A DNA stretch of 64,000 nucleotides from Clostridia bacterium (GTDB lineage: Bacteria > Bacillota > Clostridia > UBA1212 > UBA1255): assembly GCA_045546695.1 (NCBI GenBank), contig JAZQDE010000015.1, forward strand, positions 1,549 through 65,548, written 5' to 3'. A model generated the notes under the pieces. It saw only the letters and a program-made list of their open reading frames with translations. It was not told the origin of the DNA and ran no database searches. The position numbers and the translations under genes were made by a program. This document shows, piece after piece, positions 1 to 26,682 of this stretch; positions within the stretch are counted from its first letter, which is position 1, and each line of letters starts with the position of its first letter.

Positions 1-333
1 AATAAACCATATGACCTCACAAACGCGATTGCAAACAAACTTTTCCCCGGATATTTCAAAACAGTATTTGGTATGAACAAGGACTTTCCGCGCAAACCTG
101 ATCCTGCTTCAACCCTTTATGTGGCCGGACTTCTTGGTGCTGAGCCCGCAAATTGCCTTTTTATAGGCGATTCCGAGGTTGACTACAAGACCGGAGTCAA
201 TGCCGGCATGCCCGTATTTTCAGCGACATGGGGCTTCAGAGACGAAGAAGAGCTAAGACAAGCCGGTGCAAAGATACTTATTCATAAGCCAATCGATATG
301 ATTGAAGCATTCAAAGAAAATTTCGAGGTGTAA
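1..333 (+). CDS. HAD-superfamily hydrolase (phosphoglycolate-phosphatase-like), C-terminal part; 5' end lies outside the window
   Basis: The frame is open from nt 1. HAD motif III/IV-like residues are present (KPDP ... FIGDSEVDYKTGVNAGMP), and a TAA stop sits at 331-333. Confidence 0.6.
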   Translation, partial: NKPYDLTNAIANKLFPGYFKTVFGMNKDFPRKPDPASTLYVAGLLGAEPANCLFIGDSEVDYKTGVNAGMPVFSATWGFRDEEELRQAGAKILIHKPIDMIEAFKENFEV

Positions 334-334
334 A

Positions 335-1318
335 ATGATTTATCCTGCCCTTTTGCGTGAAAATTCTTTAATTGGTGTTACTGCTCCAAGTTCAGGCGTT
401 GATATCAATAAAGATCCTACTTTTGATACATATAAGACGAATCTTGCTTCATTTGGCTTCAGGTCAATTGAGACTGCAAACGTCCGCACGGGACTTACGC
501 CAAGCTCGTCTGCCAAAACACGTGCCGACGAATTCAATAGTCTTGTGAAAAATCCTGACGTTGATATGATTTTGTGCGCCAAAGGCGGTGATTTGCTGTT
601 TGAAATGCTTGATAAAGTTGATTTTGACGCGCTTGTGGCGAACCCAAAGTGGGTTCAGGGATATTCAGATCCGACTTCCCTTCTGTATGCAATAACAACA
701 AAATATGATATTGCTACAGTTTATGGTAACGGAGCCGGTGCATACAGTATGAATCCAATGCATAAATCACTAATTGATTCAATGCATCTTCTTATGGGAA
801 AAATTGATACACAATTCAGCTTTGAACTGTATGAAAAAAACAAGGGTGACAGTAGTTTCGGTTACAATCTTGATACACCTGTTGAATGGAACGGCGAAGC
901 CTTTTTCACAGGTCGTCTTATCGGCGGTTGCGTTGACGTTCTTGAGCAATTGATAGGAACGCCATTCGACGGTACAAAAGAGTTTATAAACAAATATGCG
1001 CAGGATGGTATTATATGGTATTTTGACAATTTTGCATTGTCTTCGGAAAGATTGTATGGCTTTTTATGGCACCTGAAAAAATGCGGCTATTTTAAAAACG
1101 CCTCAGGCTTTATTTTCGGCCGAAATCTTTTTGAAAGCACATTTATTGATTTTGCGTATAGCGAAGCTATTTCACGTGCCCTGGGCGATTTAAACGTACC
1201 AATTATTACCAACGCAGATATAGGACACGTCTCCCCTCGTATTGCAATAGTAAACGGCGCCCTTGCTGCAGTAAAAGTTGAAAATAAAAAAGGAACTGTA
1301 AAACAGCTCCTTTTATAA
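335..1318 (+). CDS. LD-carboxypeptidase (peptidase S66, MccF/LdcA-like)
   Basis: N-terminal LIGVTAPSSG motif typical of S66 LD-carboxypeptidases. A GAGGTG RBS sits 6 nt upstream of the ATG at 335. The ORF-track start at 302 is a TTG inside the previous gene. Confidence 0.7.
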   Translation: MIYPALLRENSLIGVTAPSSGVDINKDPTFDTYKTNLASFGFRSIETANVRTGLTPSSSAKTRADEFNSLVKNPDVDMILCAKGGDLLFEMLDKVDFDALVANPKWVQGYSDPTSLLYAITTKYDIATVYGNGAGAYSMNPMHKSLIDSMHLLMGKIDTQFSFELYEKNKGDSSFGYNLDTPVEWNGEAFFTGRLIGGCVDVLEQLIGTPFDGTKEFINKYAQDGIIWYFDNFALSSERLYGFLWHLKKCGYFKNASGFIFGRNLFESTFIDFAYSEAISRALGDLNVPIITNADIGHVSPRIAIVNGALAAVKVENKKGTVKQLLL

Positions 1319-1438
1319 TCAATATGACAGAAACATTATAAACCACATTATCAGATACAGTAGGATTATGATTCCGATAACAACAAGCATCGGCACGAAC
1401 ATCATTTTTACTGCGCCCCAATATGTGTTCCACTTATC

Positions 1439-1468
1439 GCCAAAGCTCGACTTTGGCTTATTTTTTTT
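1439..1468 (+). terminator. Rho-independent terminator downstream of the LD-carboxypeptidase gene
   Basis: Hairpin GCCAAAG-ctcga-CTTTGGC followed by TTATTTTTTTT. Confidence 0.6.
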
Positions 1469-1585
1469 ATTGTGTGAGACAGAGGAAAACGCGCTACCGC
1501 GTACACCTGACATGTCAGCAATCGTCCTGCCGTCATCAACATATTTTACTTTTTGTTTTTTCTGTTTCTTGCTCATTTTGTTCGT

Positions 1586-2566
1586 TTATTGAATCAGATG
1601 ACATGCGGCAAAATGGCCGTTGCCATAATCTTTATACTCAGGTACTTCTTCTTTACAGATATCTGTGGCATATGGACATCTTGTGTGGAATCGACAGCCT
1701 TTTGGCGGGTTAGCCGGTGAAGGGATATCGCCGCTTAAGACGATTCTGTTCATTTTCACATCGGGATCCGGATATGGAATCGCTGAGAATAACGCCTTTG
1801 TATATGGATGGAGAGGATTTGCAAAAATCTCTGCTTTTGTACCAAATTCTACCATTGAACCGAGATACATTACACCAATCTTGTCTGAAATAAACTTTAC
1901 AACTGACAAATCATGGGAGATGAAGATATACGTCAGGTTCATTGACTCCTGAAGGCTCTTGAGCAGATTGATAATCTGCGCTTGGATTGACACGTCGAGA
2001 GCTGATACAGGCTCGTCACATACGACTAGTTCAGGATTAACTGCGAGGGCTCTTGCAATACATATTCTCTGACGTTGTCCGCCTGAAAACTCATGAGGAT
2101 AACGTTCATAATAATAATCACGAAGACCGCATTTATCCATAAGTTCGAGAACGTACTCTTTGACCTGACTCTTCGGAACGATATTATGCACCATAACAGG
2201 TTCAGAAAGAATACCACCTACAGTACTTCTCGGAGGAAGTGATGAGTATGGGTCCTGGAAAATAATCTGCATCTTTGTGCGGATGTCTCTCATCTGTGAT
2301 GAATTATATTTTGTAATATCTTCTCCCTTGAAAATAATCTGACCGCTTGTCGGCTGATGAAGTTTGAGAATTGCTCTACCCATAGTAGTTTTGCCGCAAC
2401 CTGACTCACCAACGATACCGAGTGTTTCGCCGGGCATCAATGTGAAAGAAACATCGTCAACTGCAACCAACTCTTTAGTAACTTTTCCCATAAGAGTTTT
2501 CTTCAGCGGAAAGCTTTTTCTAAGATTTTTCACTTCTAATATTGGCTCATTTTTAGACATTTTCAC
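1586..2566 (-). CDS. oppF: Oligopeptide ABC transporter ATP-binding protein OppF
   Basis: Walker A GESGCGKTT, an ABC signature LSGGQRQR, and a C-terminal oligopeptide-transporter extension. It is the last gene of an A-B-C-D-F order. Confidence 0.85.
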   Translation of the reverse strand: MKMSKNEPILEVKNLRKSFPLKKTLMGKVTKELVAVDDVSFTLMPGETLGIVGESGCGKTTMGRAILKLHQPTSGQIIFKGEDITKYNSSQMRDIRTKMQIIFQDPYSSLPPRSTVGGILSEPVMVHNIVPKSQVKEYVLELMDKCGLRDYYYERYPHEFSGGQRQRICIARALAVNPELVVCDEPVSALDVSIQAQIINLLKSLQESMNLTYIFISHDLSVVKFISDKIGVMYLGSMVEFGTKAEIFANPLHPYTKALFSAIPYPDPDVKMNRIVLSGDIPSPANPPKGCRFHTRCPYATDICKEEVPEYKDYGNGHFAACHLIQ

Positions 2567-3722
2567 TCACCTCTTCATATAAATGACATGCAACAAAATG
2601 AGTCGGACTCACTTGTATCATGCCCGGATAGTCGCCGGAACACTTGTTGACACACATAGAACATCTTTCCTTAAAATAGCAATGATCCGGCATATTGATC
2701 GGGTTCGGAACGTTGCCTGGGATATTGAATAAAGTGTCACTGTCAGAATCAAGAGTAGGTTTTGATTTCTGAAGACCAATCGTATACGGATGCATAGGAT
2801 TGTGGAAAATCTCAGAAACTGTTCCCTTTTCTATAACTCTTCCTGCGTACATCACAACAACGTAATCTGCCATTTCTGCAATAATACCAAGGTCGTGTGT
2901 GATAAGAAGAATCGAACCGTCAATTTTTGTTTTGAGGTCTCTTAGCAGGTCAAGAATCTGTGCCTGAATTGTAACGTCAAGAGCGGTGGTAGGCTCATCT
3001 GCGATAATAAGTCGCGGATTTGCAGCAAGCGCCATAGCAATCATTACTCTCTGTCTCATACCGCCTGACAATTCATGCGGGAACGCCTTGTACACTCTCT
3101 CGGGCATCGCAATACCAACGAGATTGAGCATTTCCATTGATTTATCTTTTGCCTGCTGTTTTGTTGCCTTTTTATCATTGATAAAAGTAACTTCATCAAG
3201 TTGCTGACCAATGGTGAAAACAGGATTAAGAGATGTCATCGGTTCCTGGAAAATCATAGCAATTTCCTTGCCGCGGATTCTGTAAATCTCACGTGAAGGC
3301 ATTTTAGCTATATCATACACCTTGTCATCGCCTGTCTTGAAACGTATCTCACCGGAGTAAATCTGTCCCTGCGGGCCCTGGAGCAGACGCATAACTGACA
3401 TACTCGTAACTGATTTACCACATCCTGACTCACCAACAATACCAACGGTTGCATTTTTAGGCACGTCAATTGAAACACCGTTTACAGCCTTAACAACACC
3501 TTGTTCTGTGAAAAAATATGTGTGCAAATCATCAATTTCGAGAATATTTGCAGGATTTTTCAGTTCTGAAACAAACTCTTCCTCGCCGGCTTTTCTGTTT
3601 TTATAAGCCTCAAGGCGTTTCATCTCTTTGCTGTTTGCTTTAGCAATAGCACGGATCTCCTTGCCGGTGAGATAATGTTTAGAAGCTGAAGTTTTATTTG
3701 TATTATTATCTTTATTTTCCAT
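2553..3722 (-). CDS. oppD: Oligopeptide ABC transporter ATP-binding protein OppD
   Basis: Walker A GESGCGKS, signature LSGGMRQR, Walker B LIIADEPTTALD. It overlaps oppF by 14 nt. The N-terminal ~60 aa are an extension, so the start is uncertain. Confidence 0.8.
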   Translation of the reverse strand: MENKDNNTNKTSASKHYLTGKEIRAIAKANSKEMKRLEAYKNRKAGEEEFVSELKNPANILEIDDLHTYFFTEQGVVKAVNGVSIDVPKNATVGIVGESGCGKSVTSMSVMRLLQGPQGQIYSGEIRFKTGDDKVYDIAKMPSREIYRIRGKEIAMIFQEPMTSLNPVFTIGQQLDEVTFINDKKATKQQAKDKSMEMLNLVGIAMPERVYKAFPHELSGGMRQRVMIAMALAANPRLIIADEPTTALDVTIQAQILDLLRDLKTKIDGSILLITHDLGIIAEMADYVVVMYAGRVIEKGTVSEIFHNPMHPYTIGLQKSKPTLDSDSDTLFNIPGNVPNPINMPDHCYFKERCSMCVNKCSGDYPGMIQVSPTHFVACHLYEEVSENV

Positions 3723-3724
3723 AA

Positions 3725-4765
3725 TTATCTCCTCGCTTTAGGATCGAGCGCGTCACGCAGACCGTCACCTACAAAGTTAAATCCAAGTACTGCAATTACG
3801 ATACAGATACCGGCAGGTACCCATACGTAAAGATGGTTCTGAAGTACGTCCTGGTTTGTTGAAATAATATTGATCATCGAACCCCATGCATCAACGTCGC
3901 CCTTTACACCGAGATTCAGATATGACAGCGTTGCTTCATAAAGAATCATACTACCAAGGCTCAAACTCATCTGAACGATAAGCTGCGGCATAACGTTTGG
4001 CACAAGGTGTTTGAAAATCTTTCTTGTGGTCGAATATCCCATTGCTTCTGCGGCAACCATAAATTCCTGCTCACGCAAAGAAAGAATCTGACCTCTTACA
4101 AGTCTTGCCGTACCCGGCCATGATATCATTGACAAGAATGCCATCAATATGTAAATACGATAGTTAGCATTTATGTCCGATGCGTCAAGCAAAGTACTTA
4201 CGATAAGCAGAATCGGCACACCGGGCAGACAGATGAGGACGTCACATATTCTCATGATAACAGTATCAATAACTCCCCCGAAATATCCTGAAATACCACC
4301 AAAGATGATACCCATAATCGTGACTACAAATACTGCAAGGAAGCTTACGAGCAGAGATATTCTGCCACCGAGCATCAGTGATGACAGTACGTCATAGCCT
4401 TCTTCATCTGTACCAATCAGATGCTCTGAGTCAGGAGATGAAAGGAAATTATCTTTTAATTCCTTTTCAGTCGTCTGACGAACAGTATATTCAACACCAT
4501 TTACTGTATAAGTTGTTTCTGAAAAAGCATATTCTACTTTTCCACTCTCATCTAAAACAACTTTTCCGTCGTCAATCCATTCAGTATACACGTAAGGACC
4601 GACAAAACAGAACAGGAACAAGCTTATGATCATAATAAGACCGATAATACTGAGTTTTGATTTGAAAAATCTTCTGAGCACCATCTGAGTCGGAGACATA
4701 AGCTTAATATTTTTATCAAGAGGGGTCTCCTGGTTTTCTACGTTTTTATTTTCATTTTCAGCCAT
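3725..4765 (-). CDS. oppC: Oligopeptide ABC transporter permease OppC
   Basis: Multi-TM BPD-transporter permease. The N-terminal extension is typical of OppC/DppC. It sits between oppB and oppD. Confidence 0.8.
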   Translation of the reverse strand: MAENENKNVENQETPLDKNIKLMSPTQMVLRRFFKSKLSIIGLIMIISLFLFCFVGPYVYTEWIDDGKVVLDESGKVEYAFSETTYTVNGVEYTVRQTTEKELKDNFLSSPDSEHLIGTDEEGYDVLSSLMLGGRISLLVSFLAVFVVTIMGIIFGGISGYFGGVIDTVIMRICDVLICLPGVPILLIVSTLLDASDINANYRIYILMAFLSMISWPGTARLVRGQILSLREQEFMVAAEAMGYSTTRKIFKHLVPNVMPQLIVQMSLSLGSMILYEATLSYLNLGVKGDVDAWGSMINIISTNQDVLQNHLYVWVPAGICIVIAVLGFNFVGDGLRDALDPKARR

Positions 4766-4776
4766 GGTCCCACCTC

Positions 4777-5766
4777 CTATTCAAGTTTAACTCTCGGGTC
4801 TACGACAGCATACATAATATCTGCCATCAGAATACCCAATACACTCAACACGGCCAGGAACATGTTGTATCCCATAATGAACGGGATATCGCCTCTGTTC
4901 ATGGCATCAAGTGCTATATTACCGATACCGGGAAGGTCAAATACCTGCTCGGTGATGATTGCTCCTGAGAAAAGTGACGGAAGCAGACCTGCCAAAGATG
5001 TTACAAGAGGAATCAATGTGTTTCTGAAAGCGTGCTTGTTTATAACAACTTTTTCACTAAGACCCTTCGCTCTTGCTGTACGTATGTAATCAGAATTGAG
5101 AACTTCAAGCATGTTCGTTCTTGTCATCCTCATTCTGGCACCAATGCTAAGAATAACAATTGTAAGTACAGGAACAAACATATGCCTTGCATAGTCCACA
5201 AGCAACGCAAAACCGGTGTACGACTGCGTGGCGTCGACCATTCCCGACGTCGGGAACCCCATAAATTCCGAGAAGAAGCTTTTCAGAACTTGTCCGAAGA
5301 AGAATGAAGGCAATGATATACCAATCATAACCAATACTGTTACAACGTAATCTCTGAGAGAATACTGGTGTGTAGCAGCAGTTATACCAAGCGGTATTGC
5401 AATCATAAACTCAAAAATTGTAGCTACAAGTGCAATAGCAAATGATATTCCCATGTGCTCAAAAATAACTTCAGCAACAGGTCTTGCGTACACAAAGCTT
5501 GTACCGAGGTCAAAGCGAAGAAGTGATGACAGCCAGCTGAAATAGCCTTTTAAGATCCCTAAAAAGCTATCATCCTTAAGACCGTACATCTCATACATGG
5601 CATCTACGGTCTCCTGGCTGACAGTCGCTCCCCCCTGGTTCATGGCGTCGATTTTATCCTGGATAAAATCAACGGGCATCAACCTGATAAGGAAATAAAT
5701 TATCATTGATACGCCAAGCAATATTACAAGTGCCAGGGCTAATCTTTTAATAATATACTTTAACAT
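4777..5766 (-). CDS. oppB: Oligopeptide ABC transporter permease OppB
   Basis: OppB/DppB-type permease with six TM segments, immediately downstream of the binding-protein gene. Confidence 0.85.
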   Translation of the reverse strand: MLKYIIKRLALALVILLGVSMIIYFLIRLMPVDFIQDKIDAMNQGGATVSQETVDAMYEMYGLKDDSFLGILKGYFSWLSSLLRFDLGTSFVYARPVAEVIFEHMGISFAIALVATIFEFMIAIPLGITAATHQYSLRDYVVTVLVMIGISLPSFFFGQVLKSFFSEFMGFPTSGMVDATQSYTGFALLVDYARHMFVPVLTIVILSIGARMRMTRTNMLEVLNSDYIRTARAKGLSEKVVINKHAFRNTLIPLVTSLAGLLPSLFSGAIITEQVFDLPGIGNIALDAMNRGDIPFIMGYNMFLAVLSVLGILMADIMYAVVDPRVKLE

Positions 5767-5788
5767 AATCTACTCCGATTCAAAATAA

Positions 5789-8365
5789 TCAGTTTGCGAA
5801 TTCAATTTTCCAGATTTCGTCAAGTGGTGATGAATAAGGATTCATTTCACTCTCAGCAGGCATACTGGAAGCCTTAATAACATTTGAGTTGTATGCATAG
5901 AGTACACTTCTCTGGTAAACAGGAAGCTCTATTGCAAGGTCAAGAATCTGTGTCATAGCATCTTTGTAAAGCTTTGCACGCTCTGTCTGGTCGTTAATTG
6001 ATCTTGCATCGTCGATTAATTCACTGAGTGAATCAAGAATAGCCATTTCTTCTGCTGTGCCGCTTGTCTTGAGGTAATTATAACCCCATGCAAGTGTACT
6101 TGTAGCAGATGAATCTTTGTGATATACCTGATACATATCAGGGTCGAGTGCTGAAGACCATGCAGCTGCCCATACTTCAAGGGAGCCTGTGTTGATCTTT
6201 GTAAGAGCCTGAGTATCACATACTACGTCAACTTCCCAACCGAGTTCATTAAGAAGAGTTGCAGCGTCTCTGAATACCTTGTATGTCGGGTGATCCTGGA
6301 GGCTGTTGCCGGCGATTGTGAAAGTAATATCCAATGAAGCATCGCCTGCACTTACGCCTGCAGCCTGCATATATTTTTCAATATTGGCAATTGCAATAGA
6401 TTCATTCCATTTGCCGAGCTGAGGATAATCGCAGTTGTTGTCAGTAGCATCATTGCCTGTAGGATAAGCCCAGCTTACCATTGACATCGGCCAGTAAATC
6501 TGTGATGCAGTACCTGCTCTGTAGTAGTCAAGAGCAAGAGATGTGTTCATAGCGCACATGATAGCTTTACGGATATTGATATCATTAATCTTCGCAGCGT
6601 TTACACCTACGTAACCATAACCGAGCTGATCTTCTACAATCTTTTCAATACCTTTTGATTTAAGATTTTCAAGCTTATCAAAGTTGTCAGTTGTAAGTGA
6701 TGGTGAAATGTAATGAACAGCGCCACTTTCAAGTGCAGCAATTGCGTTTGCAGAGCTTACAACCTGGTAACGGATCTTCTCTATTTTAGCATTTTCAATA
6801 GAAGAACCCGTTGTGTGGAAATTGTTATTTGCTTTGAAGTAAACAACGTTGTTCATATAGAAAGCTGATTCTGAAGGCTTGTCACTGTTGTTGCTGTCTG
6901 TAGCTTTATAAGCACCTGCACCCATAGGAAGCTTAATATTTCTTGTTGACTGAATAACGTTCTTCATAAAGTCAAAGCTTGCAAATTCAACGCCGAACTT
7001 GTTGTTGGCAATATCAACGTCAACTTTACTTCCTTCACCATAGTAATGCTGAGGTGCAACTGTTAATGCAAAGTTCCAGATTGCCTTAGGGTCAATACCA
7101 TCAATTGTAATCTGAAGAACATCATACTCATCAGCATTTGTAACAGTACCATCGCTGTTGTGACCTGAAGCAATCTTGTATTCTTTACCATTTACTGTAA
7201 TTGTTGTACCTGCAAGATCTGTATGACCAAGAGACTTGATGCCTGAGATGCTTGGAACGAGAAGGCCGTCGTCAGTTACGTTTTCATGAAGAATTACTTC
7301 TGTAGCTTTAGCTGTAAACTCGTTTGTAAGAGTTGTGGCTGTTGCCCAGTACTGAAGAATTATGTTAAGTTCGCGTGCAATCTTATCGTTGTATATATAC
7401 TGAATTGCATCTTCTTTTGTTTTGATTGATTCAGGATATCCTTTTGTAAGAGTAGCAATCTTTGTCTTGTCATCCTTACCATTTTCATCCTTTGCATATT
7501 CAATCTCAACGTAACCTTCTGAGAACATGAAGCAGAAAATCTCATCCTTGAATTCTTCGTGTGACTTGTAAGGCTCGTCTGTATATGATTCCTGAGCACT
7601 TACGTAGTCTGATTCGAGTTCTTCTTTGAAAAGTTCCAAAGCGCGCTCGTAGTCTTCAAGAAGATTCTGGTTTGTTACTTCTGAAGGATTGTTTGATATA
7701 GCTGCCTTGTAACCTGAACCAAGTGTATGAGCAAGAATCGCTGCTTTCATCGTAGCGTAATCAACTTCTCTTGTTGAAGAAGCTTTAAGCTGGTTGTTAA
7801 ACAGGTTGATAAGTTCATTGATTCTTGTTTTGGCTCTTGAAGCTGCCTGTGAAGAGATCAATGCATTACTGTCATCTGAAGCAGAACCAATTGTCTGTGT
7901 TCTATATTCAGATAAACCAATGATATCTGTTGAATATAATGTTGATGAACCTGTATAAACCGGATCAAGATATACGTAATAGTTGAAAAGTATATCTTCC
8001 ATGGTAAGAGGATGTCCATCTGAGAACAAAATACCATTTTTGATGATAAATGTATATGTTGTTGTGTCATCAGCATTTTCAACAACATCGTAGTCCTTTA
8101 CAACAACTGCTTCGTCGTCGCCGTAACCAACTACAACCTCACCGTTTTCATAATTTGATGTGAGCATTCCAATCTGTGTCATGGCAACAATAGTGCCGTC
8201 TGCAGCAGATGTTGAAAAGAAAGGATTGAACAGTCCGTCAGGTTGATCTGTCATGATAACGAAAGCATCAACATTTGTTTTTTCACTGTTACATCCTGAA
8301 AAAGTTCCAATAATACCGGCGCAAAGGCAAATGCACAGTACTAATGATAATATTCTTTTTCTCAT
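5789..8365 (-). CDS. oppA: Oligopeptide-binding lipoprotein OppA (family-5 solute-binding protein), unusually long at 858 aa
   Basis: Lipoprotein signal with lipobox (LCAGIIGTFSGC). The SBP_bac_5-like fold carries long insertions. GGAG RBS. It is the first gene of the opp operon. Confidence 0.75.
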   Translation of the reverse strand: MRKRILSLVLCICLCAGIIGTFSGCNSEKTNVDAFVIMTDQPDGLFNPFFSTSAADGTIVAMTQIGMLTSNYENGEVVVGYGDDEAVVVKDYDVVENADDTTTYTFIIKNGILFSDGHPLTMEDILFNYYVYLDPVYTGSSTLYSTDIIGLSEYRTQTIGSASDDSNALISSQAASRAKTRINELINLFNNQLKASSTREVDYATMKAAILAHTLGSGYKAAISNNPSEVTNQNLLEDYERALELFKEELESDYVSAQESYTDEPYKSHEEFKDEIFCFMFSEGYVEIEYAKDENGKDDKTKIATLTKGYPESIKTKEDAIQYIYNDKIARELNIILQYWATATTLTNEFTAKATEVILHENVTDDGLLVPSISGIKSLGHTDLAGTTITVNGKEYKIASGHNSDGTVTNADEYDVLQITIDGIDPKAIWNFALTVAPQHYYGEGSKVDVDIANNKFGVEFASFDFMKNVIQSTRNIKLPMGAGAYKATDSNNSDKPSESAFYMNNVVYFKANNNFHTTGSSIENAKIEKIRYQVVSSANAIAALESGAVHYISPSLTTDNFDKLENLKSKGIEKIVEDQLGYGYVGVNAAKINDINIRKAIMCAMNTSLALDYYRAGTASQIYWPMSMVSWAYPTGNDATDNNCDYPQLGKWNESIAIANIEKYMQAAGVSAGDASLDITFTIAGNSLQDHPTYKVFRDAATLLNELGWEVDVVCDTQALTKINTGSLEVWAAAWSSALDPDMYQVYHKDSSATSTLAWGYNYLKTSGTAEEMAILDSLSELIDDARSINDQTERAKLYKDAMTQILDLAIELPVYQRSVLYAYNSNVIKASSMPAESEMNPYSSPLDEIWKIEFAN

Positions 8366-8416
8366 TTTGCTTCTCCTTTACAATTTTATATAATATATCC
8401 AATAATTCTTATAAAA

Positions 8417-9739
8417 TTATGATATAACAACACTTACCTGATTTCCGGATATTTCTATCTGTACTTTTTCAGGATTCTCTCCACCGACAACACACGTGAT
8501 GTCAGAAAAATCAACTAAAGAATAATCACCAAGGCCACAAACAAGACCAATTGAGTAATCATCAACACCAAAGTAGCATTGAGAATCGATAATGATTGTA
8601 CCTTTTTCTATAGTAATATTTTCAACAGTAGCAGCCGATGAAATTGAGCCTGCAAGCAAGCCATAGTTTGTACCGACAACTCTCGTACCACCCTTTATTG
8701 TAAACGACACATTCTTAAATGCAACATCTTTAATTGAAGAACCGTCTGACAACTGTCCGAACAGACCACTGTTTGCCTTGGCATTATTTGTCTGTACGAA
8801 TGAAATATTACTGAAAACGTGTCCGTTTCCTTGAATTGAACCTGTGAAATTACCATGCATAAATGCTGTTGGCCAGATTTTGTCTGTGAAATCAAGGTCA
8901 GCCATTATAATGTAATTTCCTGAAATATTTGCATTTGAAATGAATTGTTCTGCTGTATGAATCTGATACCAGTCGCCTTCAATCCAGTCTATGTATACTT
9001 TCATTACTGTATTTGTTGCAGTACCTGTTGCCTCATCAAACACACCTGTATGAACAATCGTGTCACCTGTAATCTGATTTTCACAATTAAGGTCTGTATA
9101 TGCTCCGTCAAATGTAAAACCTGTCTTTTGAGGAATATCATCAGACGTAAGTTTTCCGGTCTTCTCGTCCCATTTGGGCATAGCAAATGAATTACCATCC
9201 ATCGGGTTGAAAGATGTTTCTTTTAACAACTCGCCTGTAGTCGAATCATAGAATTCGATTTCAAAAAGAGGAACCCAGGCTGCATACAATGTGACATATG
9301 GCTCACTTGCATTATATTCTTTGCTTGCATCAACTTCCAGAAGTTGGTTGTCAAAATCCCATTTGTCAGCATAAGTATAATAAACGTTACCGTCTGAATC
9401 AGTATTCTCTATCCTTTCCTGATACCAGCCGGCAAGGAAATAACCATTATTTGTGGCTTCAAAAGCATCAGTAGCCCTGGCCGGGTCATCGGGACGAAGA
9501 AGTGCAATTTCAGCGTTACCATTACTGTTTTTGTTTACGTTGTTTATGTTATATGAATCAACAATAACTGACGTATTCGTTGTGAAAAAGCCACCGTTAG
9601 CGTCATATTTAACGCTTACGGTATAACCTTTTTCATTATTTACATCATAAGGATTCTCGCTGGAATTACAGCCAACTAAAAGTCCAAGCAAAATCAAAAC
9701 AAAACAGAGTATAAATAATACTTTATTTCTTAAATTCAT
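8417..9739 (-). CDS. Surface lipoprotein with a Listeria-Bacteroides-type repeat and a GLUG motif
   Basis: Lipobox LLGLLVGC. YxVxYDANGG ... GWY repeat resembling Flg_new. GNFTGSIQGNGHVFSNISF ... GLFG resembling the GLUG motif. The start overlaps the protease stop (ATGA). Confidence 0.5.
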   Translation of the reverse strand: MNLRNKVLFILCFVLILLGLLVGCNSSENPYDVNNEKGYTVSVKYDANGGFFTTNTSVIVDSYNINNVNKNSNGNAEIALLRPDDPARATDAFEATNNGYFLAGWYQERIENTDSDGNVYYTYADKWDFDNQLLEVDASKEYNASEPYVTLYAAWVPLFEIEFYDSTTGELLKETSFNPMDGNSFAMPKWDEKTGKLTSDDIPQKTGFTFDGAYTDLNCENQITGDTIVHTGVFDEATGTATNTVMKVYIDWIEGDWYQIHTAEQFISNANISGNYIIMADLDFTDKIWPTAFMHGNFTGSIQGNGHVFSNISFVQTNNAKANSGLFGQLSDGSSIKDVAFKNVSFTIKGGTRVVGTNYGLLAGSISSAATVENITIEKGTIIIDSQCYFGVDDYSIGLVCGLGDYSLVDFSDITCVVGGENPEKVQIEISGNQVSVVIS

Positions 9740-16914: not shown

Positions 16915-16973
16915 ATAATCGCCTTTCTTTGTTTCTTGTTGTACCACGAAAATACACTTATACACAATGTATT

Positions 16974-19603: not shown

Positions 19604-22549
19604 TTATTTTATATAGCAAATTAAGAACATCCATGCAATTTCAAGATTTACATTTTCTTTTTCTGCAAACAGGAACATCGGTTCATCAGGATTGCACCAA
19701 CCTGTGTGATTCATATGATTTGTAATAATATACATTAAATCAGCATCAAGCGGATATACCTCTTTTGTCGGATCCATACTTTCAACATATTTCATAAGAC
19801 AATCTGTATAATCTTCCTTTTTAACAAAATTACCGTCTTTGTCATAGAAAAATGCTCTTGCCGGTGATGTTTCAATCATCTTTACATATGAAATGTATGG
19901 AGTATTTTCACCAAGAGATACTAAGGCAACAGGACCATCAGCAGTGCCGATATGGTAGTATCCGTCATTGTCATTAAATACCAGCTTGTAATCATCTGTC
20001 TTGCCTGTAATATCTACGTATGCAAGATTCGCACCTGAAGGAAGTGTATACTTAGGCGGATTCTTGGCAGGTTCGTATATGATATAGTCAATATCTGTTA
20101 TATCTGTCGGAGCTGCACCAATTCTGTTGATAGCGATGACACCGCCTTTATCACCCTGCGCTGCAATTATGTAAATAGCACCGAGGTTGTTTTCCTTGAC
20201 AGTCAATGTAAATGAATTGTTTGACATGTCGGTAGAAGATGTCATATCAGATATAAAGTGAAGGCTTGCACCCATAAAATGGAAGCTTGCATCTGTACTT
20301 GTAAGTGAAATATTGTATATTCCCGAAGCAACCGGCTCGAAAACAAAGTATGTCATCTCGTCACTGAGCTCAACAAACACAGAACCGATTGACAGCCTAA
20401 CAGCATCGCCAACGTAAAGCTCTTCTGTCTGGGTTGATGCTTTAGGAGCAAAGACTATAGTTGTGCTTGTTTTTGATGCAGAAAGTGTGCAGCTACTGCC
20501 TGTGTTATATAACAAATTGCTTCCGGAAACTGTCGGAACTACTGTATAATCGCCTGCTTCAAGAGTAAACTTTACGATACCGTTTGAATTGACATTTCCT
20601 GTATAAACAGTACTGCTGCCCTTCATAACCTTGATGCTTGCATCTGTAATAGCTTTGCCTGTAGCATCTTTGAGCGCAACAGTATATTCTTTGTCAACTT
20701 TCTCAATTACAATCTTTTTGATTTTAATTGTAATACTTGTCTTGTCCTCATCAAGCTCGTATGTCTTAGAATCTGTTACATATCCATCGGGCACCGTAAT
20801 CTTGAAAGTATATTCGCCTTCTTCGCACTCGATAGTAGCAATACCGTCTGCGCCTGTTGTAAGAGACTCAGTAGACTCGCTTGTTTTGAACGAAATTTTC
20901 ACACCTTTTACAGCCTTGCCGTCTTCGTCAGTGATTTTAATCTCATATTCAACAATGTCCGGAACTTCGATTATATCATCATCAACGTCACATTCTACAA
21001 ATGATGTGAGTGAAACAAAATCACACGCCGGATATTTGTTGCCATCATCCGGAAGAGCAGATATTGTAAGCTGAAGAGTGTCACCTACTTTTACAGGAAT
21101 TGTAAGTGTAGTGAGCCCTGTATTGCTGTCCACGACACCGTCATTTGACAATGTCTTATACACATATGAAGTCAGATTATATAACACGTAATCATATGAA
21201 ACGCCTGCTGTTGATGTTTTACATACAATTGTGAAAAATCCTTCTTTATCAGCCACATATGAATAATAAACACCCTGGTCTTTACCCTCCGGCAAAGAAG
21301 TTGAAAACTCACCTAAAATAAGGTCGTATGGATTTGCTGTTGTACCTTCTTCGTTAGCAAACTTTACAACATATTTTTTCTGCTCAGAGGAAGTATTTTT
21401 AAATTGAAGTAATACTGGTGTGAACGTATCTGATGAGAATACCTGTAAAGTAACAGCTCCGTTTTCAGGCTTGAGCGTATCACCGTTGTATACTAACTCA
21501 AAGCTTTCGCCTGTGACAGTCGTAATCATACCGGAAACTTTATAAAAGTTACAATAAATATGACCACCTGCAGGAACATCAATGCTATATTCCATTTCAC
21601 CGCCAAATTCATATGGATTTTGCTCTGTGCCTGATTCTACTTCAACAGTTACAATATCATCGACTTTGTCTACAACCTTCTGAACGTAAGAATCGCTTGT
21701 ATAATATGCAAATATGCCTTTGAAAACTTCATCATCAAGCTCATATCCTTCAAATGCCAGAGTGATCATTCCATAACGGTCAATAACAATTGTCTTTGGA
21801 TATGAATTAATATTGAAAAGTGTTTTCCACGCAGAGTCTCCTCTACCCATCGGGAAAGTAAGTCCGTTATCTTCTTTATACTTTGCAATATCAGATGCTG
21901 TACCATCAACAATATTGATAGCAAGAACCTCAACACTGTCAGAATACTCATTGTAGGCACTCTCAATCATTGGAAATTCCATTCTGCATGGATCACATTG
22001 GATATACCAGAAGTTAAGAATTACTGCTTTTTTATCTTTAAGAATATCTGAAATCTTATGTGTCTTATTGTCAGAATCTGTCAAAGTCAGATCGTAAACA
22101 ATGTCACCCTTACCAAGTATCACACCATCGATGCTGCCCTCAGGGAGCTTTGTTGACAATGTAATTGTTGTTTCATTATCCTTGATCGGATAAACATCAT
22201 CTACAACGTATCCTTTTACAGTATTCTTCAGTACAGCAACAGCATTGTCATCGATTGCGTCGCTGAATGTAATCATGCCGTTTTCATCTGTTCTCTCAAA
22301 TGCTACGAGTTCTTCTTGTGTGCTGTCCGTGTAAATATATACGTCAACGTTTGAAAGAGGCATGCCGCCTTCAGTCTTTACAGTTATCGTATAATCTTCA
22401 ACCTCCGGAACCGGAGTAGCCGTCGGAGCAGCAGTAGGCTTGCTACCTTCGGTGTCGTCATCGCCACATGAGACCATAAGCAGGCACAATGATGCAATTA
22501 TAAGAATCAAAAGAAAAAATACTGATTTTTTATTACGCATAATAATCAC
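19604..22549 (-). CDS. Large lipoprotein: CarbopepD_reg-like domain, TlpA-like thioredoxin domain (CDPC), conserved C-terminal module (981 aa)
   Basis: Lipobox LLMVSCG. KAVILNFWYIQCDPCRMEFP ... YPKTIVIDRYGMI redoxin fold with Cys185/Cys188. The C-terminal region is paralogous to the next two genes and ends WMFLICYIK. Confidence 0.65.
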   Translation of the reverse strand: MIIMRNKKSVFFLLILIIASLCLLMVSCGDDDTEGSKPTAAPTATPVPEVEDYTITVKTEGGMPLSNVDVYIYTDSTQEELVAFERTDENGMITFSDAIDDNAVAVLKNTVKGYVVDDVYPIKDNETTITLSTKLPEGSIDGVILGKGDIVYDLTLTDSDNKTHKISDILKDKKAVILNFWYIQCDPCRMEFPMIESAYNEYSDSVEVLAINIVDGTASDIAKYKEDNGLTFPMGRGDSAWKTLFNINSYPKTIVIDRYGMITLAFEGYELDDEVFKGIFAYYTSDSYVQKVVDKVDDIVTVEVESGTEQNPYEFGGEMEYSIDVPAGGHIYCNFYKVSGMITTVTGESFELVYNGDTLKPENGAVTLQVFSSDTFTPVLLQFKNTSSEQKKYVVKFANEEGTTANPYDLILGEFSTSLPEGKDQGVYYSYVADKEGFFTIVCKTSTAGVSYDYVLYNLTSYVYKTLSNDGVVDSNTGLTTLTIPVKVGDTLQLTISALPDDGNKYPACDFVSLTSFVECDVDDDIIEVPDIVEYEIKITDEDGKAVKGVKISFKTSESTESLTTGADGIATIECEEGEYTFKITVPDGYVTDSKTYELDEDKTSITIKIKKIVIEKVDKEYTVALKDATGKAITDASIKVMKGSSTVYTGNVNSNGIVKFTLEAGDYTVVPTVSGSNLLYNTGSSCTLSASKTSTTIVFAPKASTQTEELYVGDAVRLSIGSVFVELSDEMTYFVFEPVASGIYNISLTSTDASFHFMGASLHFISDMTSSTDMSNNSFTLTVKENNLGAIYIIAAQGDKGGVIAINRIGAAPTDITDIDYIIYEPAKNPPKYTLPSGANLAYVDITGKTDDYKLVFNDNDGYYHIGTADGPVALVSLGENTPYISYVKMIETSPARAFFYDKDGNFVKKEDYTDCLMKYVESMDPTKEVYPLDADLMYIITNHMNHTGWCNPDEPMFLFAEKENVNLEIAWMFLICYIK

Positions 22550-23862: not shown

Positions 23863-26682
23863 TCACTGGCCAAGATAATCGTAGTAGTAACATAACTTGA
23901 GCCATCCGAATTCAACACTGTAATCCATCGGGTTTACATATTTATCAGCAAGAAGCTGGAGAATCTCAGCAAGTTGCTCATCTACCGCAACGCAGCCATT
24001 GATTTCTTTGTCGGATCCGTCAATAATCTTATTTACATATGATTTGATTATATCTGTATAATCCTTGCCTTTACCATGATACTGACCGTTCAATACTTCT
24101 TCAAGTTTATACTCTTCAGCGTAAATCTCATACAATTCACCCCAGAGGTCTTTTAAGTATTGGATTGTCTTATCCTTATCTCTGCCATTCTTTTCAAAAT
24201 ATGAAATGATTACCTGATCGTAATCCGTCTTGCTGAAATCAAATCCACCCATATCAATGATACCCTTGATATCACCTTGTGTGACAAACGGTACATTCAT
24301 TACTGTAACACCTGTAAAGTCAGCATAAATCTTGCTTCCGTAAATCTGCTTGCCGTTGCTGTCTTTACCAAGATCGTGATAATAGTAACCATCATCGCCA
24401 AGTACAACGTCAATACCGCCGCTGATTGTATCATACATGTGCTCACCTGTAGCATCTGTATCGTATGTGTAATATCCGGGAGAAGCTACTCTGAAGTAAT
24501 CAAACTCGCTGCCAAGATATTCAATATCAAACGGAATATAACCTACTCTATAAACGTCCCAGAAAGCAATGTTGATGTAGTACGGTGTGCCTGCCTCCAT
24601 GTAATATACGATAGATACGTTATTTGCATCGCCATACAATCTCTCACAATACTCATAAGTCATAAGTATCTCATGATTATCATTAAAGAGCCATGCCTCA
24701 ACGCCTTCTGGCGCTGTTGAGTTTGAAGTAATTCTATAAACGCCTGACTTCTTCGGAACGAACTTTCTGAGTGTACCTCTTGGAATAATTACTCTGTCGT
24801 AGTAGAAGTAATTCTCTTCAAGTCCCTTACCTTCAAATACTTCGGGAGCTGAGAATGGAGTAAGTCCCTGAATCGGGTCAACGAGCTGTTTGTTTCCATC
24901 CGGACCATATACTTCATAATAACGACAAATCTTGAGCCATTCATCTGGTGTGTTATCGAAACCGAATACACCGGCTACTTTTTTGAGAATCTCTGCGAGC
25001 TCTTCGTTAACTGTACATACACCATTCAATGATGAGTTTGATGCGAAGTTGAGATATTTAAGAATCTCATCATAAAGATCTTTGCCATCAACAACAACAT
25101 TTTCACCATAAAGCAATGTGTAAATTGACTTTTCATCGTTGAAAATAGTCAGGTTCATCAGATTAGCAAGAAGGAGCGGGCCATTTTCTGAGCCGACGTG
25201 GTAATAACCATCTTTGTTGTTGAAATAAATATCTATATAATCAAATGAACCATCAGCATTTTCAGTTGCAGGAAGTCTTGGAATATATGATTCTACGTCG
25301 ATATCTTTTGCGTCAACAACTCTCATGTTTGAAATATAAACCGTATCGTCACCATTGTTTGTTGAATCGTCTTTAGAATATACTAAAGCAAGTTCATACG
25401 TACCATCTTCTATAGCTACCCATGGATAACAAGAAGACCATCCGTCGCTTCCTGACGAGCCTGAAACCTGATAAATGTCTTCTCTTTGAACAACTACAAA
25501 AAGAACGTCATTTATTTCTTCTGTTGAAACGATGTAATCAAAAGCGATTGCCTGTCCTGCTTTGAGTTCGATATCGGCGTAAATTGCTGAATACGAAGCT
25601 TCTATACCCTTATTTGATGAGTAAATACATTTTCTGCCATCCTTTTCACCGATAATGAATGGCCAGGCATATTCTGCGTTTGCACTCTCTGTCTCAGGTC
25701 TGTAAGTTACGTTGATAGAGCCTGAGTTAATTGCATTACCGATATTTTCAGATGTGTCCATTGTCTTGTCAGGCTTCTGAAGTGTCACAAATTCGCTGAT
25801 ACTGGAAGCAATCTTCTGCTTATAATCGTCTGCTGTGAAATAATCAAACAGACATGTGAAAGGTCTGAGGCTTGTAATTGCACCAACTTCTACGAGACAG
25901 ATAACGCCATATCGGTCAATCATCACAGATGTCGGATATGAGTTTACTGAGAACGCCTGAGCAAGTGTATATTGACAAGGAGCCATCTTGAATGTAAGAC
26001 CTCTTTGCTGCTGATAATTTTTAACTGCAGCCGCTGTATCCATAGGTGATACAGCAATTATCTCAATATCATCTTGGTACATCTCATATGCTTGTTGCAT
26101 ATAAGGGAATTCAAGCTCACAAGCAGAACAACCATCATACCAGAAGTTAAGCAGAACAGCTTTTTTTGTTTTGAGGACCTCTGAAAGTGTAACCTGCGCT
26201 CCGTCTGATGTTGTTACTGTTAAATCATACATAACGTCTCCGGCTTTGAGAGAAACAGAACCTGAAAGATCTTCTTTAACAACAGAAGATGATAATGTAA
26301 TCAGTGCAGTGTTGCCGGTGAAAGAATAATATGGCTCAACGTCATATCCTTTTGGAAGACCTCTGACTTCAACAGCGTATGAGTTACTTACAGGAAGTTC
26401 AAAACTTACAAAACCAAGTTCGTTTGTCTTGCCATACTGTTTGAGGTCTGAGAGTGTATTGTCGGCGTATACGTAAACGTCTACGTCAGCAAATACTCTG
26501 CCGGCAAATGATTTGATGCTAACGTCGTATGCTGCTTTTTCTCCGTTATTATCCGTAGTACCTTGCGTAGGTGCAGCCGTAGCATCTGTCTTATCCGATG
26601 AATTATCGCCACAGCCAACAAACACTGCCGCAATCAGACACACGGATAGAATAATTGCGATTGTTTTCTTTAAAATAGTCAT
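23863..26682 (-). CDS. Large lipoprotein: CarbopepD_reg-like domain, TlpA-like thioredoxin domain (CSAC), two copies of the conserved C-terminal module (939 aa)
   Basis: Lipobox VFVGCG. KAVLLNFWYDGCSACELEFP ... YPTSVMIDRYGVI. An internal module ends WLKICRYYEVYG and the C-terminal module ends WLKLCYYYDYLGQ. AAAGGTGAGGAA RBS. Confidence 0.65.
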   Translation of the reverse strand: MTILKKTIAIILSVCLIAAVFVGCGDNSSDKTDATAAPTQGTTDNNGEKAAYDVSIKSFAGRVFADVDVYVYADNTLSDLKQYGKTNELGFVSFELPVSNSYAVEVRGLPKGYDVEPYYSFTGNTALITLSSSVVKEDLSGSVSLKAGDVMYDLTVTTSDGAQVTLSEVLKTKKAVLLNFWYDGCSACELEFPYMQQAYEMYQDDIEIIAVSPMDTAAAVKNYQQQRGLTFKMAPCQYTLAQAFSVNSYPTSVMIDRYGVICLVEVGAITSLRPFTCLFDYFTADDYKQKIASSISEFVTLQKPDKTMDTSENIGNAINSGSINVTYRPETESANAEYAWPFIIGEKDGRKCIYSSNKGIEASYSAIYADIELKAGQAIAFDYIVSTEEINDVLFVVVQREDIYQVSGSSGSDGWSSCYPWVAIEDGTYELALVYSKDDSTNNGDDTVYISNMRVVDAKDIDVESYIPRLPATENADGSFDYIDIYFNNKDGYYHVGSENGPLLLANLMNLTIFNDEKSIYTLLYGENVVVDGKDLYDEILKYLNFASNSSLNGVCTVNEELAEILKKVAGVFGFDNTPDEWLKICRYYEVYGPDGNKQLVDPIQGLTPFSAPEVFEGKGLEENYFYYDRVIIPRGTLRKFVPKKSGVYRITSNSTAPEGVEAWLFNDNHEILMTYEYCERLYGDANNVSIVYYMEAGTPYYINIAFWDVYRVGYIPFDIEYLGSEFDYFRVASPGYYTYDTDATGEHMYDTISGGIDVVLGDDGYYYHDLGKDSNGKQIYGSKIYADFTGVTVMNVPFVTQGDIKGIIDMGGFDFSKTDYDQVIISYFEKNGRDKDKTIQYLKDLWGELYEIYAEEYKLEEVLNGQYHGKGKDYTDIIKSYVNKIIDGSDKEINGCVAVDEQLAEILQLLADKYVNPMDYSVEFGWLKLCYYYDYLGQ

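Follow-up and report, generated by a model that had tools for sequence, protein, structure and literature searches.

A conserved gene block of gut Clostridia combines a giant surface subtilase, an uncharacterised lipoprotein and an Opp-type importer

Gene content of the block

The DNA analysed here, called the window, is a stretch of 64,000 nucleotides from contig JAZQDE010000015.1 of a Clostridia bacterium, and coordinates are window positions unless another contig is named. It carries a chromosomal unit of eight genes on the minus strand, which encode in order a cell-envelope S8 serine protease, a lipoprotein, the substrate-binding protein OppA, the permeases OppB and OppC, the ATPases OppD and OppF, and a protein of 85 residues. 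The first seven had been described, in an original prediction made from the letters of the window, as one co-directional block at 1586-16965, and all seven open reading frames (ORFs) were recovered on the minus strand at these coordinates from the ORF list of the window. The leucine-rich repeats and the transmembrane anchor of the protease, the enlarged OppA, and the 85-residue gene with the terminator-like hairpin that closes the unit are additions to that description. The eight genes probably form one operon that serves protein digestion outside the cell and the uptake of peptides.

Read mechanically, the protease ORF extends from a GTG at 16965 to 9736 (2409 codons), and it was at 16965 that the gene had been thought to start. 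The true start is most likely the ATG at 16914, which gives a protein of 2392 residues (9736..16914, minus strand), because a signal-peptide-like sequence opens at this codon and the gene calls in assemblies of the same species also give 2392 residues. Orthologs are called at 2392-2393 residues. The putative signal peptide region, read from the translation, is MSKKTLLNISRSLCVLLLAGLILFGFISEQPAQSAEF (16804..16914, minus strand); the N-terminus is hydrophobic and signal-like by eye, and the approximately 170 residues that precede the catalytic Asp gave no propeptide match in Pfam.

Pfam recognised a Peptidase_S8 domain (residues 204-669, 14908..16305, E value 8e-42) into which a PA domain is inserted (residues 477-546, 15277..15486, PF02225, E 2.8e-16), then an fn3_5 domain on the C-terminal side of the catalytic domain (residues 707-830, 14425..14796, PF06280, E 7e-14), a Big_2 domain, and seven LRR_5 stretches of BspA-type leucine-rich repeats (LRR; E 7.6e-105). 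The LRR region covers about 800 residues (approximately 1374-2166, 10417..12795, with bounds taken from motif positions). By sequence, the closest solved relatives are SpyCEP/ScpC (E 5e-66 to 3e-62) and the C5a peptidase ScpA/ScpB (about 6e-52) (PDB 7edd, 5xyr and 1xf1). The alignment with SpyCEP and ScpA is unbroken over residues 200-849 (to 843 with SpyCEP alone) and spans the S8 domain, the PA insert and the first Fn3 domain. The motifs of the catalytic Asp (VAVLDTGLD), His (HGTHVAG), Asn (AAASNS) and Ser (SGTSMACP) align with those of SpyCEP in the subtilase order of an Asp-His-Ser triad and an oxyanion-hole Asn, and the PA domain lies between the catalytic His/Asn and Ser, as it does in SpyCEP and C5a peptidase. 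A loss of catalytic residues in orthologs had been named in advance as an argument against the original prediction; none was seen, as D213, H287, N383 and S607 (the Met at 16914 being residue 1) are unchanged in all of 50 full-length orthologs.

The window protein ends in a transmembrane anchor (VSTFIYIGAAALIVLGGIGVGVYYFL, 9766..9843, minus strand) followed by a basic tail, and its orthologs likewise end in a transmembrane helix and a charged cytoplasmic tail of variable length. No LPXTG-like motif was found within the last 80 residues of any of the 50 orthologs, and the protease shows neither LPXTG/sortase attachment nor an S-layer-type anchor. It scored 260 bits against the NCBIfam model of the LPXTG serine peptidase SGO_0316/0317, whose cut-off is 1400, and its LRR region resembled the adhesin HupY/LrrG (103 bits, NCBIfam). 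The NCBI pipeline names the orthologs 'leucine-rich repeat protein' or 'hypothetical protein'. By its catalytic residues, PA insert and following Fn3-like domain, the catalytic head belongs to the cell-envelope proteinase group, while the mode of anchoring and the family-model score do not fit. The earlier description of the protein as a PrtP/lactocepin-like S8 protease with a PA domain is correct for the first ~830 residues and does not extend to the remainder, which consists of Big_2, about 800 residues of LRR and a transmembrane anchor, without LPXTG. Together with the lipoprotein, the LRR region is the least conserved part of the block; the immunoglobulin-like (Ig-like) domains and LRR repeats probably bind substrates or surfaces.

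The lipoprotein gene (8417..9739, minus strand, 440 residues) overlaps the protease gene as had been predicted: the stop codon of the protease and the start codon of the lipoprotein share ATGA at 9739..9736, with the ribosome-binding site AAGGGAAG just upstream. A spacer of 51 nucleotides (8416..8366) separates it from oppA; this spacer is AT-rich, contains AAGGAG, which is a good ribosome-binding site, and has no hairpin. The transporter genes then follow on the same strand. They are oppA (5789..8365, 858 residues, Pfam SBP_bac_5), oppB (4777..5766, 329 residues, BPD_transp_1), oppC (3725..4765, 346 residues, OppC_N and BPD_transp_1), oppD (2553..3722, 389 residues) and oppF (1586..2566, 326 residues from the GTG at 2566; other gene callers start it at the ATG at 2560, which gives 324 residues), both ATPases consisting of ABC_tran and oligo_HPY. 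The lipoprotein (lipobox LLVGC) and OppA (lipobox TFSGC) were both classified as bacterial lipoproteins by the lipobox pattern [LVI][ASTVI][GAS]C.

According to Pfam, a family-5 binding protein, two permeases and two oligo_HPY ATPases, the five components of PepT-family importers, are all present, and the proteins clearly point to an importer of the Opp/Dpp/Nik family. Against NCBIfam models, OppA scored 85 bits with Opp4A (cut-off 650) and 43 bits with the nickel-binding NikA, OppB matched Opp4B and Opp2B best, below the cut-off, OppC reached 316 bits with Opp4C (cut-off 350), and OppD matched the OppD model best, again below the cut-off. OppF was the sole component to pass, with 421 bits against a cut-off of 408 for the subfamily model NF008453. 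Equivalog-level identity with a characterised oligopeptide system was not reached. The claim of a complete oppABCDF set 51 nucleotides after the lipoprotein gene is therefore right as to the five components and the spacer, and applies at the family level only, given the 85 bits of OppA against 650. Oligopeptides are the likely transported substrate, as far as the sequences allow this to be judged.

OppA is ~300 residues longer than the OppA of lactic acid bacteria. Its alignment with Bacillus subtilis AppA (1xoc, E 9e-12) falls into two pieces, which pair residues 93-140 with AppA 71-118 and residues 528-807 with AppA 214-477; this implies an insertion of ~290 residues (at ~140-430). The length is kept at 854-864 residues among the 120 best homologs. 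The AlphaFold2 model of OppA was poor (predicted local distance difference test, pLDDT, 50; shallow alignment at 85% identity); only the insertion, at residues ~170-420, was modelled with confidence, and it is mostly helical. A Foldseek search with this model returned OppA, DppA and MppA on top, with weak scores (E ~6e-3), and the weak matches also included NikA, CntA and sialic-acid binders; no fold match was found for the insertion in the PDB. A look-up with OppA found the same species in four metagenome assemblies.

The last gene of the unit (1319..1576, minus strand) starts nine bases after oppF and encodes 85 residues with a Lys-rich N-terminus and a C-terminal transmembrane helix. The protein gave no family match in Pfam or NCBIfam. 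Homologs with 33-79% identity were found 3' of oppF in about 60 of the related loci described below. This small protein could be an accessory subunit of the transporter.

Conservation and transcription signals

In order to compare the locus with its relatives, one genome per species was scanned (185,579 genomes), and relatives of the lipoprotein were detected in at least 291 of them. The best 80 of these 291 genomes and 5 metagenome loci gave 85 loci, which were searched with the window proteins by tblastn. The best 80 are all metagenome-assembled genomes (MAGs) from gut, in agreement with the protein-rich gut niche that had been proposed; the hosts include sheep, goat, roe deer, water buffalo, yak and water deer, and the genomes are labelled Clostridia, Oscillospiraceae, Acutalibacteraceae, Faecousia, Candidatus Fimenecus and similar.

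The order protease, lipoprotein, OppA, B, C, D, F and small ORF was colinear and on one strand in 85 of 85 loci, as far as each contig reached, so that the comparison in related genomes called for at the outset upheld the arrangement. All four segments of the protease were present in that order without exception. Identity to the window was 50-71% for the lipoprotein, 64-81% for the protease head, 67-90% for OppA and 65-97% (mostly 80-86%) for OppB. Because the order is colinear in every related locus whose contig reaches, the arrangement is more than a matter of chance.

Junction lengths were estimated across 61-85 loci. The protease and lipoprotein genes mostly overlap by 4-17 nucleotides (median -11), and the gap between the lipoprotein gene and oppA measures 15-51 nucleotides in 84 of the 85 loci (median 33). 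Typical gaps are ~15 nucleotides between oppA and oppB (median 15), ~12 between oppB and oppC (median 12) and 3 between oppC and oppD (median 3); oppD and oppF typically overlap by 8 nucleotides (median -1), and the small ORF follows oppF after 4-20 nucleotides (median 6). Under a strict rule (hairpin plus T tract), no terminator-like site was detected at any of the seven internal junctions in these 61-85 loci. A strong terminator between the protease and opp genes had been named as a second finding that would speak against a single unit, and none was found at the junctions of the 85 loci. Of 61 loci, 29 have a terminator-like site directly behind the small ORF. In the window this position is occupied by an intrinsic-terminator-like hairpin of 12 pairs with a T run (1288..1314, minus strand). 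The terminator-like matches within the block of the window (e.g. 8830..8813 and 6740..6721) fall within coding sequence and are followed by poor T tails, and the window total of 14 is practically that expected from shuffling (13.7).

A consensus scan found a sigma-70-type promoter-like site at 16974..17002 (minus strand; -35 TTGCAA, 17-nucleotide spacer, -10 TATGAT) in the 175-nucleotide divergent intergenic region upstream of the protease. The element CTTGC[AT]TTT-N17-TA[AT][AT]AT is conserved 60-100 nucleotides before the protease ATG in the ~50 loci that were aligned. Promoter-like matches, defined by a score of at least 9 of 12 against the sigma-70 consensus, occur before the protease in 56% of loci and before the lipoprotein gene and oppA in 8-12%. 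In the same region (~16940..17030, ~50 loci), AGTAAAT lies upstream of the promoter and a TGAATATGTATGT-like motif just downstream of the -10 element; both may be operator sites for a regulator. A CodY box was considered as a conserved operator and rejected, as it occurred with at most 3 mismatches in only 9 of 50 loci and not at all in the window. A scan of the whole window at Rfam gathering scores gave no match, and no riboswitch, T-box or leader was recognised upstream of the block.

The block thus has the attributes expected of an operon, namely one strand, short or overlapping junctions, no internal terminator, a promoter upstream and a terminator downstream, and co-transcription of all genes from one promoter is predicted on this basis. 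As for the earlier proposal of one potential transcription unit, the short spacers, the lack of an internal terminator, the placing of the promoter only upstream and the end terminator all agree with it, and co-transcription itself has the standing of a prediction.

The partner lipoprotein, its natural fusions and the flanking genes

The lipobox Cys of the lipoprotein is invariant in 25 orthologs. The protein is built of two weak Flg_new-like beta domains and a C-terminal beta-rich domain. No Pfam domain scored above threshold; sub-threshold matches to Flg_new were seen in 24 of 25 orthologs, and four family members gave matches to Peptidase_M26_N (PF05342) below the gathering score. The gene had been labelled 'GLUG'. 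However, GLUG (PF07581) gave no match in the 25 orthologs even at E<=10, nor in 10 more family members (8 distant stand-alone relatives and 2 fusions) at E<=0.01. With 35 family members tested and no GLUG match in Pfam, this label was rejected, while the 'lipoprotein' part of the name is borne out by the lipobox. What likeness there is to GLUG and to the IgA1-protease N-terminal region consists of a GLFG-containing, repeat-like segment, the all-beta C-terminal domain and the sub-threshold M26_N matches.

The AlphaFold2 model of the lipoprotein has a mean pLDDT of 81, which exceeds 88 over residues 160-440; this all-beta model has a C-terminal domain that is long and rich in beta structure. Searched against the PDB with Foldseek, it gave nothing below E 0.07, and the beta-helix and IgA1-protease rows were not significant; a profile search of PDB sequences gave matches at chance level only. 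The family is nevertheless large: a search of 1.84 billion cluster representatives gave 3111 matches at E<=1e-3, of which 337 reach E<=1e-30, and the 150 best are mostly 430-520 residues long. More than 1900 proteins match in a 90%-clustered collection, all of them without a name. An exact-sequence look-up of the window lipoprotein gave no match.

In four cluster representatives (P0244, P0246, P0260 and P0273), the C-terminal part of the protease is joined to a lipoprotein homolog in a single protein. P0246 is known from protein sequence only. On three contigs the fusion junction lies in a continuous ORF (L086, 4394-6748; L087, 5686-7614; L088, 1822-4059) without a stop codon, N or scaffold gap, and an OppA homolog is located 3' of each of these fused genes. 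The order of parts is the protease C-terminal domain, a transmembrane helix, a cytoplasmic linker that is first Lys-rich and then acidic, a second transmembrane helix and the lipoprotein-like ectodomain. In the fusions the lipobox segment has become an internal transmembrane helix, from which the Cys is absent in 3 of 4. Their lipoprotein parts share 38-47% identity with that of the window and are more distant from it than those of the 80 genome loci.

Two further observations concern the same proteins. The unfused long proteases (e.g. those of loci L003-L008) end in a tail that resembles the linker of the fusions. A divergent stand-alone relative, P0384 (633 residues), aligns to the lipoprotein only over its C-terminal half, and its locus L094 has the order 2534-residue S8-PA-LRR protease, P0384, 891-residue OppA, BCDF and a 75-residue ORF.

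Gene fusion and ATGA coupling are classical evidence that two proteins act together. That the protease and the lipoprotein form one polypeptide in three distant contigs, and that their genes overlap by ATGA, argues that the two act together. The same two features would speak for a lasting partnership and against a foldase that acts only transiently, as lactococcal PrtM does. The lipoprotein most likely stays with the protease as its partner on the outside of the membrane.

On the other side of the protease promoter lies a divergent pair of genes (17089..19037, plus strand) for a membrane protein of 144 residues and a Fer4_5/redoxin protein of 510 residues. The latter is a polyferredoxin-like membrane Fer4_5 protein with a C-terminal redoxin domain and a CTSC motif. 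The pair adjoins the protease in 45 of 46 and 46 of 46 loci, and a Fer4/redoxin gene is found upstream of the protease in the distant locus L094 as well; the downstream neighbour of the block is kept in 1 of 57 loci. The redoxin-type genes may constitute an extracytoplasmic thiol-reducing module tied to the proteolytic block. Two more large proteins, of 981 and 939 residues (19604..22549 and 23863..26682, both minus strand), combine AhpC-TSA/redoxin and Ig-like domains.

At the other end, a convergent LD-carboxypeptidase (S66) gene (302..1318, plus strand) abuts the small ORF without an intergenic base, so that the terminator-like hairpin at 1288..1314 falls inside the 3' end of the S66 coding sequence. 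Farther away, two proteins of 1607 residues (36947..41770, minus strand) and 612 residues (41785..43623, minus strand) gave no Pfam match at E<=1e-5. The window as a whole is ordinary chromosome of a spore-forming Clostridia bacterium; a mobile island was considered and rejected in view of the housekeeping genes nearby (LepA, AspRS, SpoIIP) and of a composition without a break.

Interpretation and relation to known systems

With a probability of roughly 0.7, we interpret the block as one operon that combines protein breakdown outside the cell with the import of peptides. The sigma-70-type promoter near 17002..16974 would drive one long transcript ending at the hairpin at 1314..1288. Its first product would be the membrane-anchored subtilase of 2392 residues, with its intact Asp-His-Ser triad, PA insert and Fn3 domain and its Ig-like and LRR extension. 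The translationally coupled lipoprotein would be a fixed partner of the protease and could position or bind the substrate, or stabilise the enzyme. The released peptides would be caught by the enlarged OppA-type lipoprotein and imported by OppBCDF. The observation behind the original prediction is real, and its interpretation is partly supported, with 'PrtP-like' to be limited to the protease head and 'GLUG' to be dropped.

Several points weigh against this interpretation. Among solved structures, the protease is closest to SpyCEP and C5a peptidase, which are proteases of narrow specificity for host factors and not nutritional enzymes. The lipoprotein has no relative of known function that could be detected by Pfam, fold or PDB sequence searches, and its proposed role is therefore read only from where its gene lies and from the fusions. 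With OppA no equivalog threshold is reached, there is a weaker match to NikA and the AlphaFold2 model was poor, so that peptides are no more than its likely ligand. All loci come from one related clade, and the shared gene order could partly reflect common descent; yet just 1 of 57 loci retains the downstream neighbour, which argues against common descent alone. A promoter-like match is present within 150 nucleotides upstream of oppC in 60% of loci (window ~4766..4915) and may represent an internal promoter or simply follow from constraint on the coding sequence at the 3' end of oppB. A promoter inside the lipoprotein or protease coding region is also possible.

There are three other explanations, each of which is less well supported than the single operon. 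In the first, the genes would be functionally related neighbours that do not share one transcript, and opp would have its own promoter, within the last part of the lipoprotein gene or at another place. Neighbouring genes need not be co-transcribed, since oppA1 of Lactobacillus delbrueckii is transcribed apart from the adjacent oppDFBC (PMC5561223); the 51-nucleotide spacer is AT-rich, and promoter-like matches occur within 150 nucleotides upstream of oppA in 12% of loci, in addition to those before oppC. We nevertheless consider separate transcription unlikely, as the spacer, which measures 15-51 nucleotides in 84 of 85 loci, leaves no room for a terminator and a promoter with leader, no terminator-like hairpin is found at the lipoprotein-oppA junction in the 85 loci, and the spacer of the window has no acceptable -35 hexamer. 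More doubtful still is that the protease is not mainly nutritional and serves as an adhesin-protease against specific host or competitor proteins, or as a processor of signalling peptides whose specific product is taken up by the importer. SpyCEP and C5a peptidase as the best solved relatives are in line with this idea, as are the resemblance of the BspA-type LRR region to HupY/LrrG and the low conservation of the lipoprotein and the LRR, which is what one expects of surface proteins under diversifying selection. However, the conserved block includes no RRNPP-type or other regulator and no gene for a peptide precursor, and the link to a full Opp-type importer is invariant in 80 animal-gut MAG loci, so that nutrition fits better than a host-specific virulence role.

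The least probable of the three is that the transporter imports something other than peptides, such as nickel/metallophores, oligosaccharides or muropeptides, and that the genes share another function, for example cell-envelope turnover. OppA is indeed very divergent (85 bits against the Opp4A cut-off of 650, and 43 bits with NikA), its insertion of ~290 residues has no assigned role, and substrate-binding protein family 5 includes non-peptide binders such as NikA, CntA and sialic-acid binders. Yet the best matches by sequence and fold are peptide binders (AppA at E 9e-12; OppA, DppA and MppA), both ATPases carry the oligo_HPY tail, and OppC and OppD match oligopeptide models best.

The logic of the proposed operon is that of the PrtP/PrtL (lactocepin, MEROPS S8) and Opp/Opt systems of lactic acid bacteria, in which a surface subtilase with PA and Fn3-like domains feeds OppA and OppBCDF. 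PrtP-type enzymes share the catalytic motifs and domain order over the first ~830 residues of the window protease. In Lactococcus, prtP/prtM and opp are separate loci, whereas the window has the protease and opp genes in one compact block. The window protease also differs from PrtP in its transmembrane anchor, which is not of the LPXTG or S-layer type, and in the ~800 additional residues of BspA-type LRR, and the block has an unrelated lipoprotein in place of a PrsA/PrtM-like maturase. The prtL of L. delbrueckii is a monocistronic gene at a separate place from opp/opt, with which a repressor coordinates it in trans (PMC5561223).

The window protease is set apart from the streptococcal enzymes by its 2392 residues, its LRR_5 repeats, its transmembrane anchor and its place beside transporter genes. 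Both SpyCEP and C5a peptidase are virulence factors that are anchored by LPXTG and act on a narrow range of substrates, and we know of no linkage of their genes to opp genes. The LRR_5 repeats are like those of BspA-type surface proteins such as HupY/LrrG, but here they form the C-terminal half of an active-looking protease and not a stand-alone adhesin. Between the lipoprotein and solved IgA1 protease, no significant match was found by fold or by sequence. In a literature search that was not exhaustive, no description was found of a protease-opp operon, of a Firmicutes 'protein utilisation locus' or of the lipoprotein family. New here are the physical coupling of the genes, which is conserved, a partner lipoprotein that is uncharacterised and occurs in natural fusions, and an OppA of enlarged size.

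A bolder reading, which we regard as speculative and rather improbable when all its parts are taken jointly, is that the block and its divergent neighbours are a Gram-positive 'protein utilisation locus' that builds a physical machine at the cell surface. The LRR protease and the beta-rich lipoprotein would then form a fixed complex that hands peptides directly to OppA, the helical insertion of 290 residues in OppA would be a docking domain, and the Fer4/thioredoxin-like protein would reduce disulfide bonds of the substrate before cleavage. If this were true, the lipoprotein would found a new family of protease accessory subunits.

To our knowledge, the supply of amino acids to gut Clostridia from dietary or host protein is poorly understood, and what is known of protease-plus-Opp systems comes mostly from dairy lactic acid bacteria. 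The single operon proposed here would mean that, in a large group of uncultured species of animal guts, a giant surface protease is genetically tied to a peptide importer. It would also provide a function-by-association handle on three families that go under 'hypothetical' or 'leucine-rich repeat protein' in public records: the 440-residue lipoprotein, the 858-residue OppA variant and the 85-residue membrane protein. The block may further serve as a compact marker by which proteolytic capacity can be traced in gut and hindgut metagenomes; this capacity matters for the loss of nitrogen in ruminants and for the fermentation of protein in the colon.

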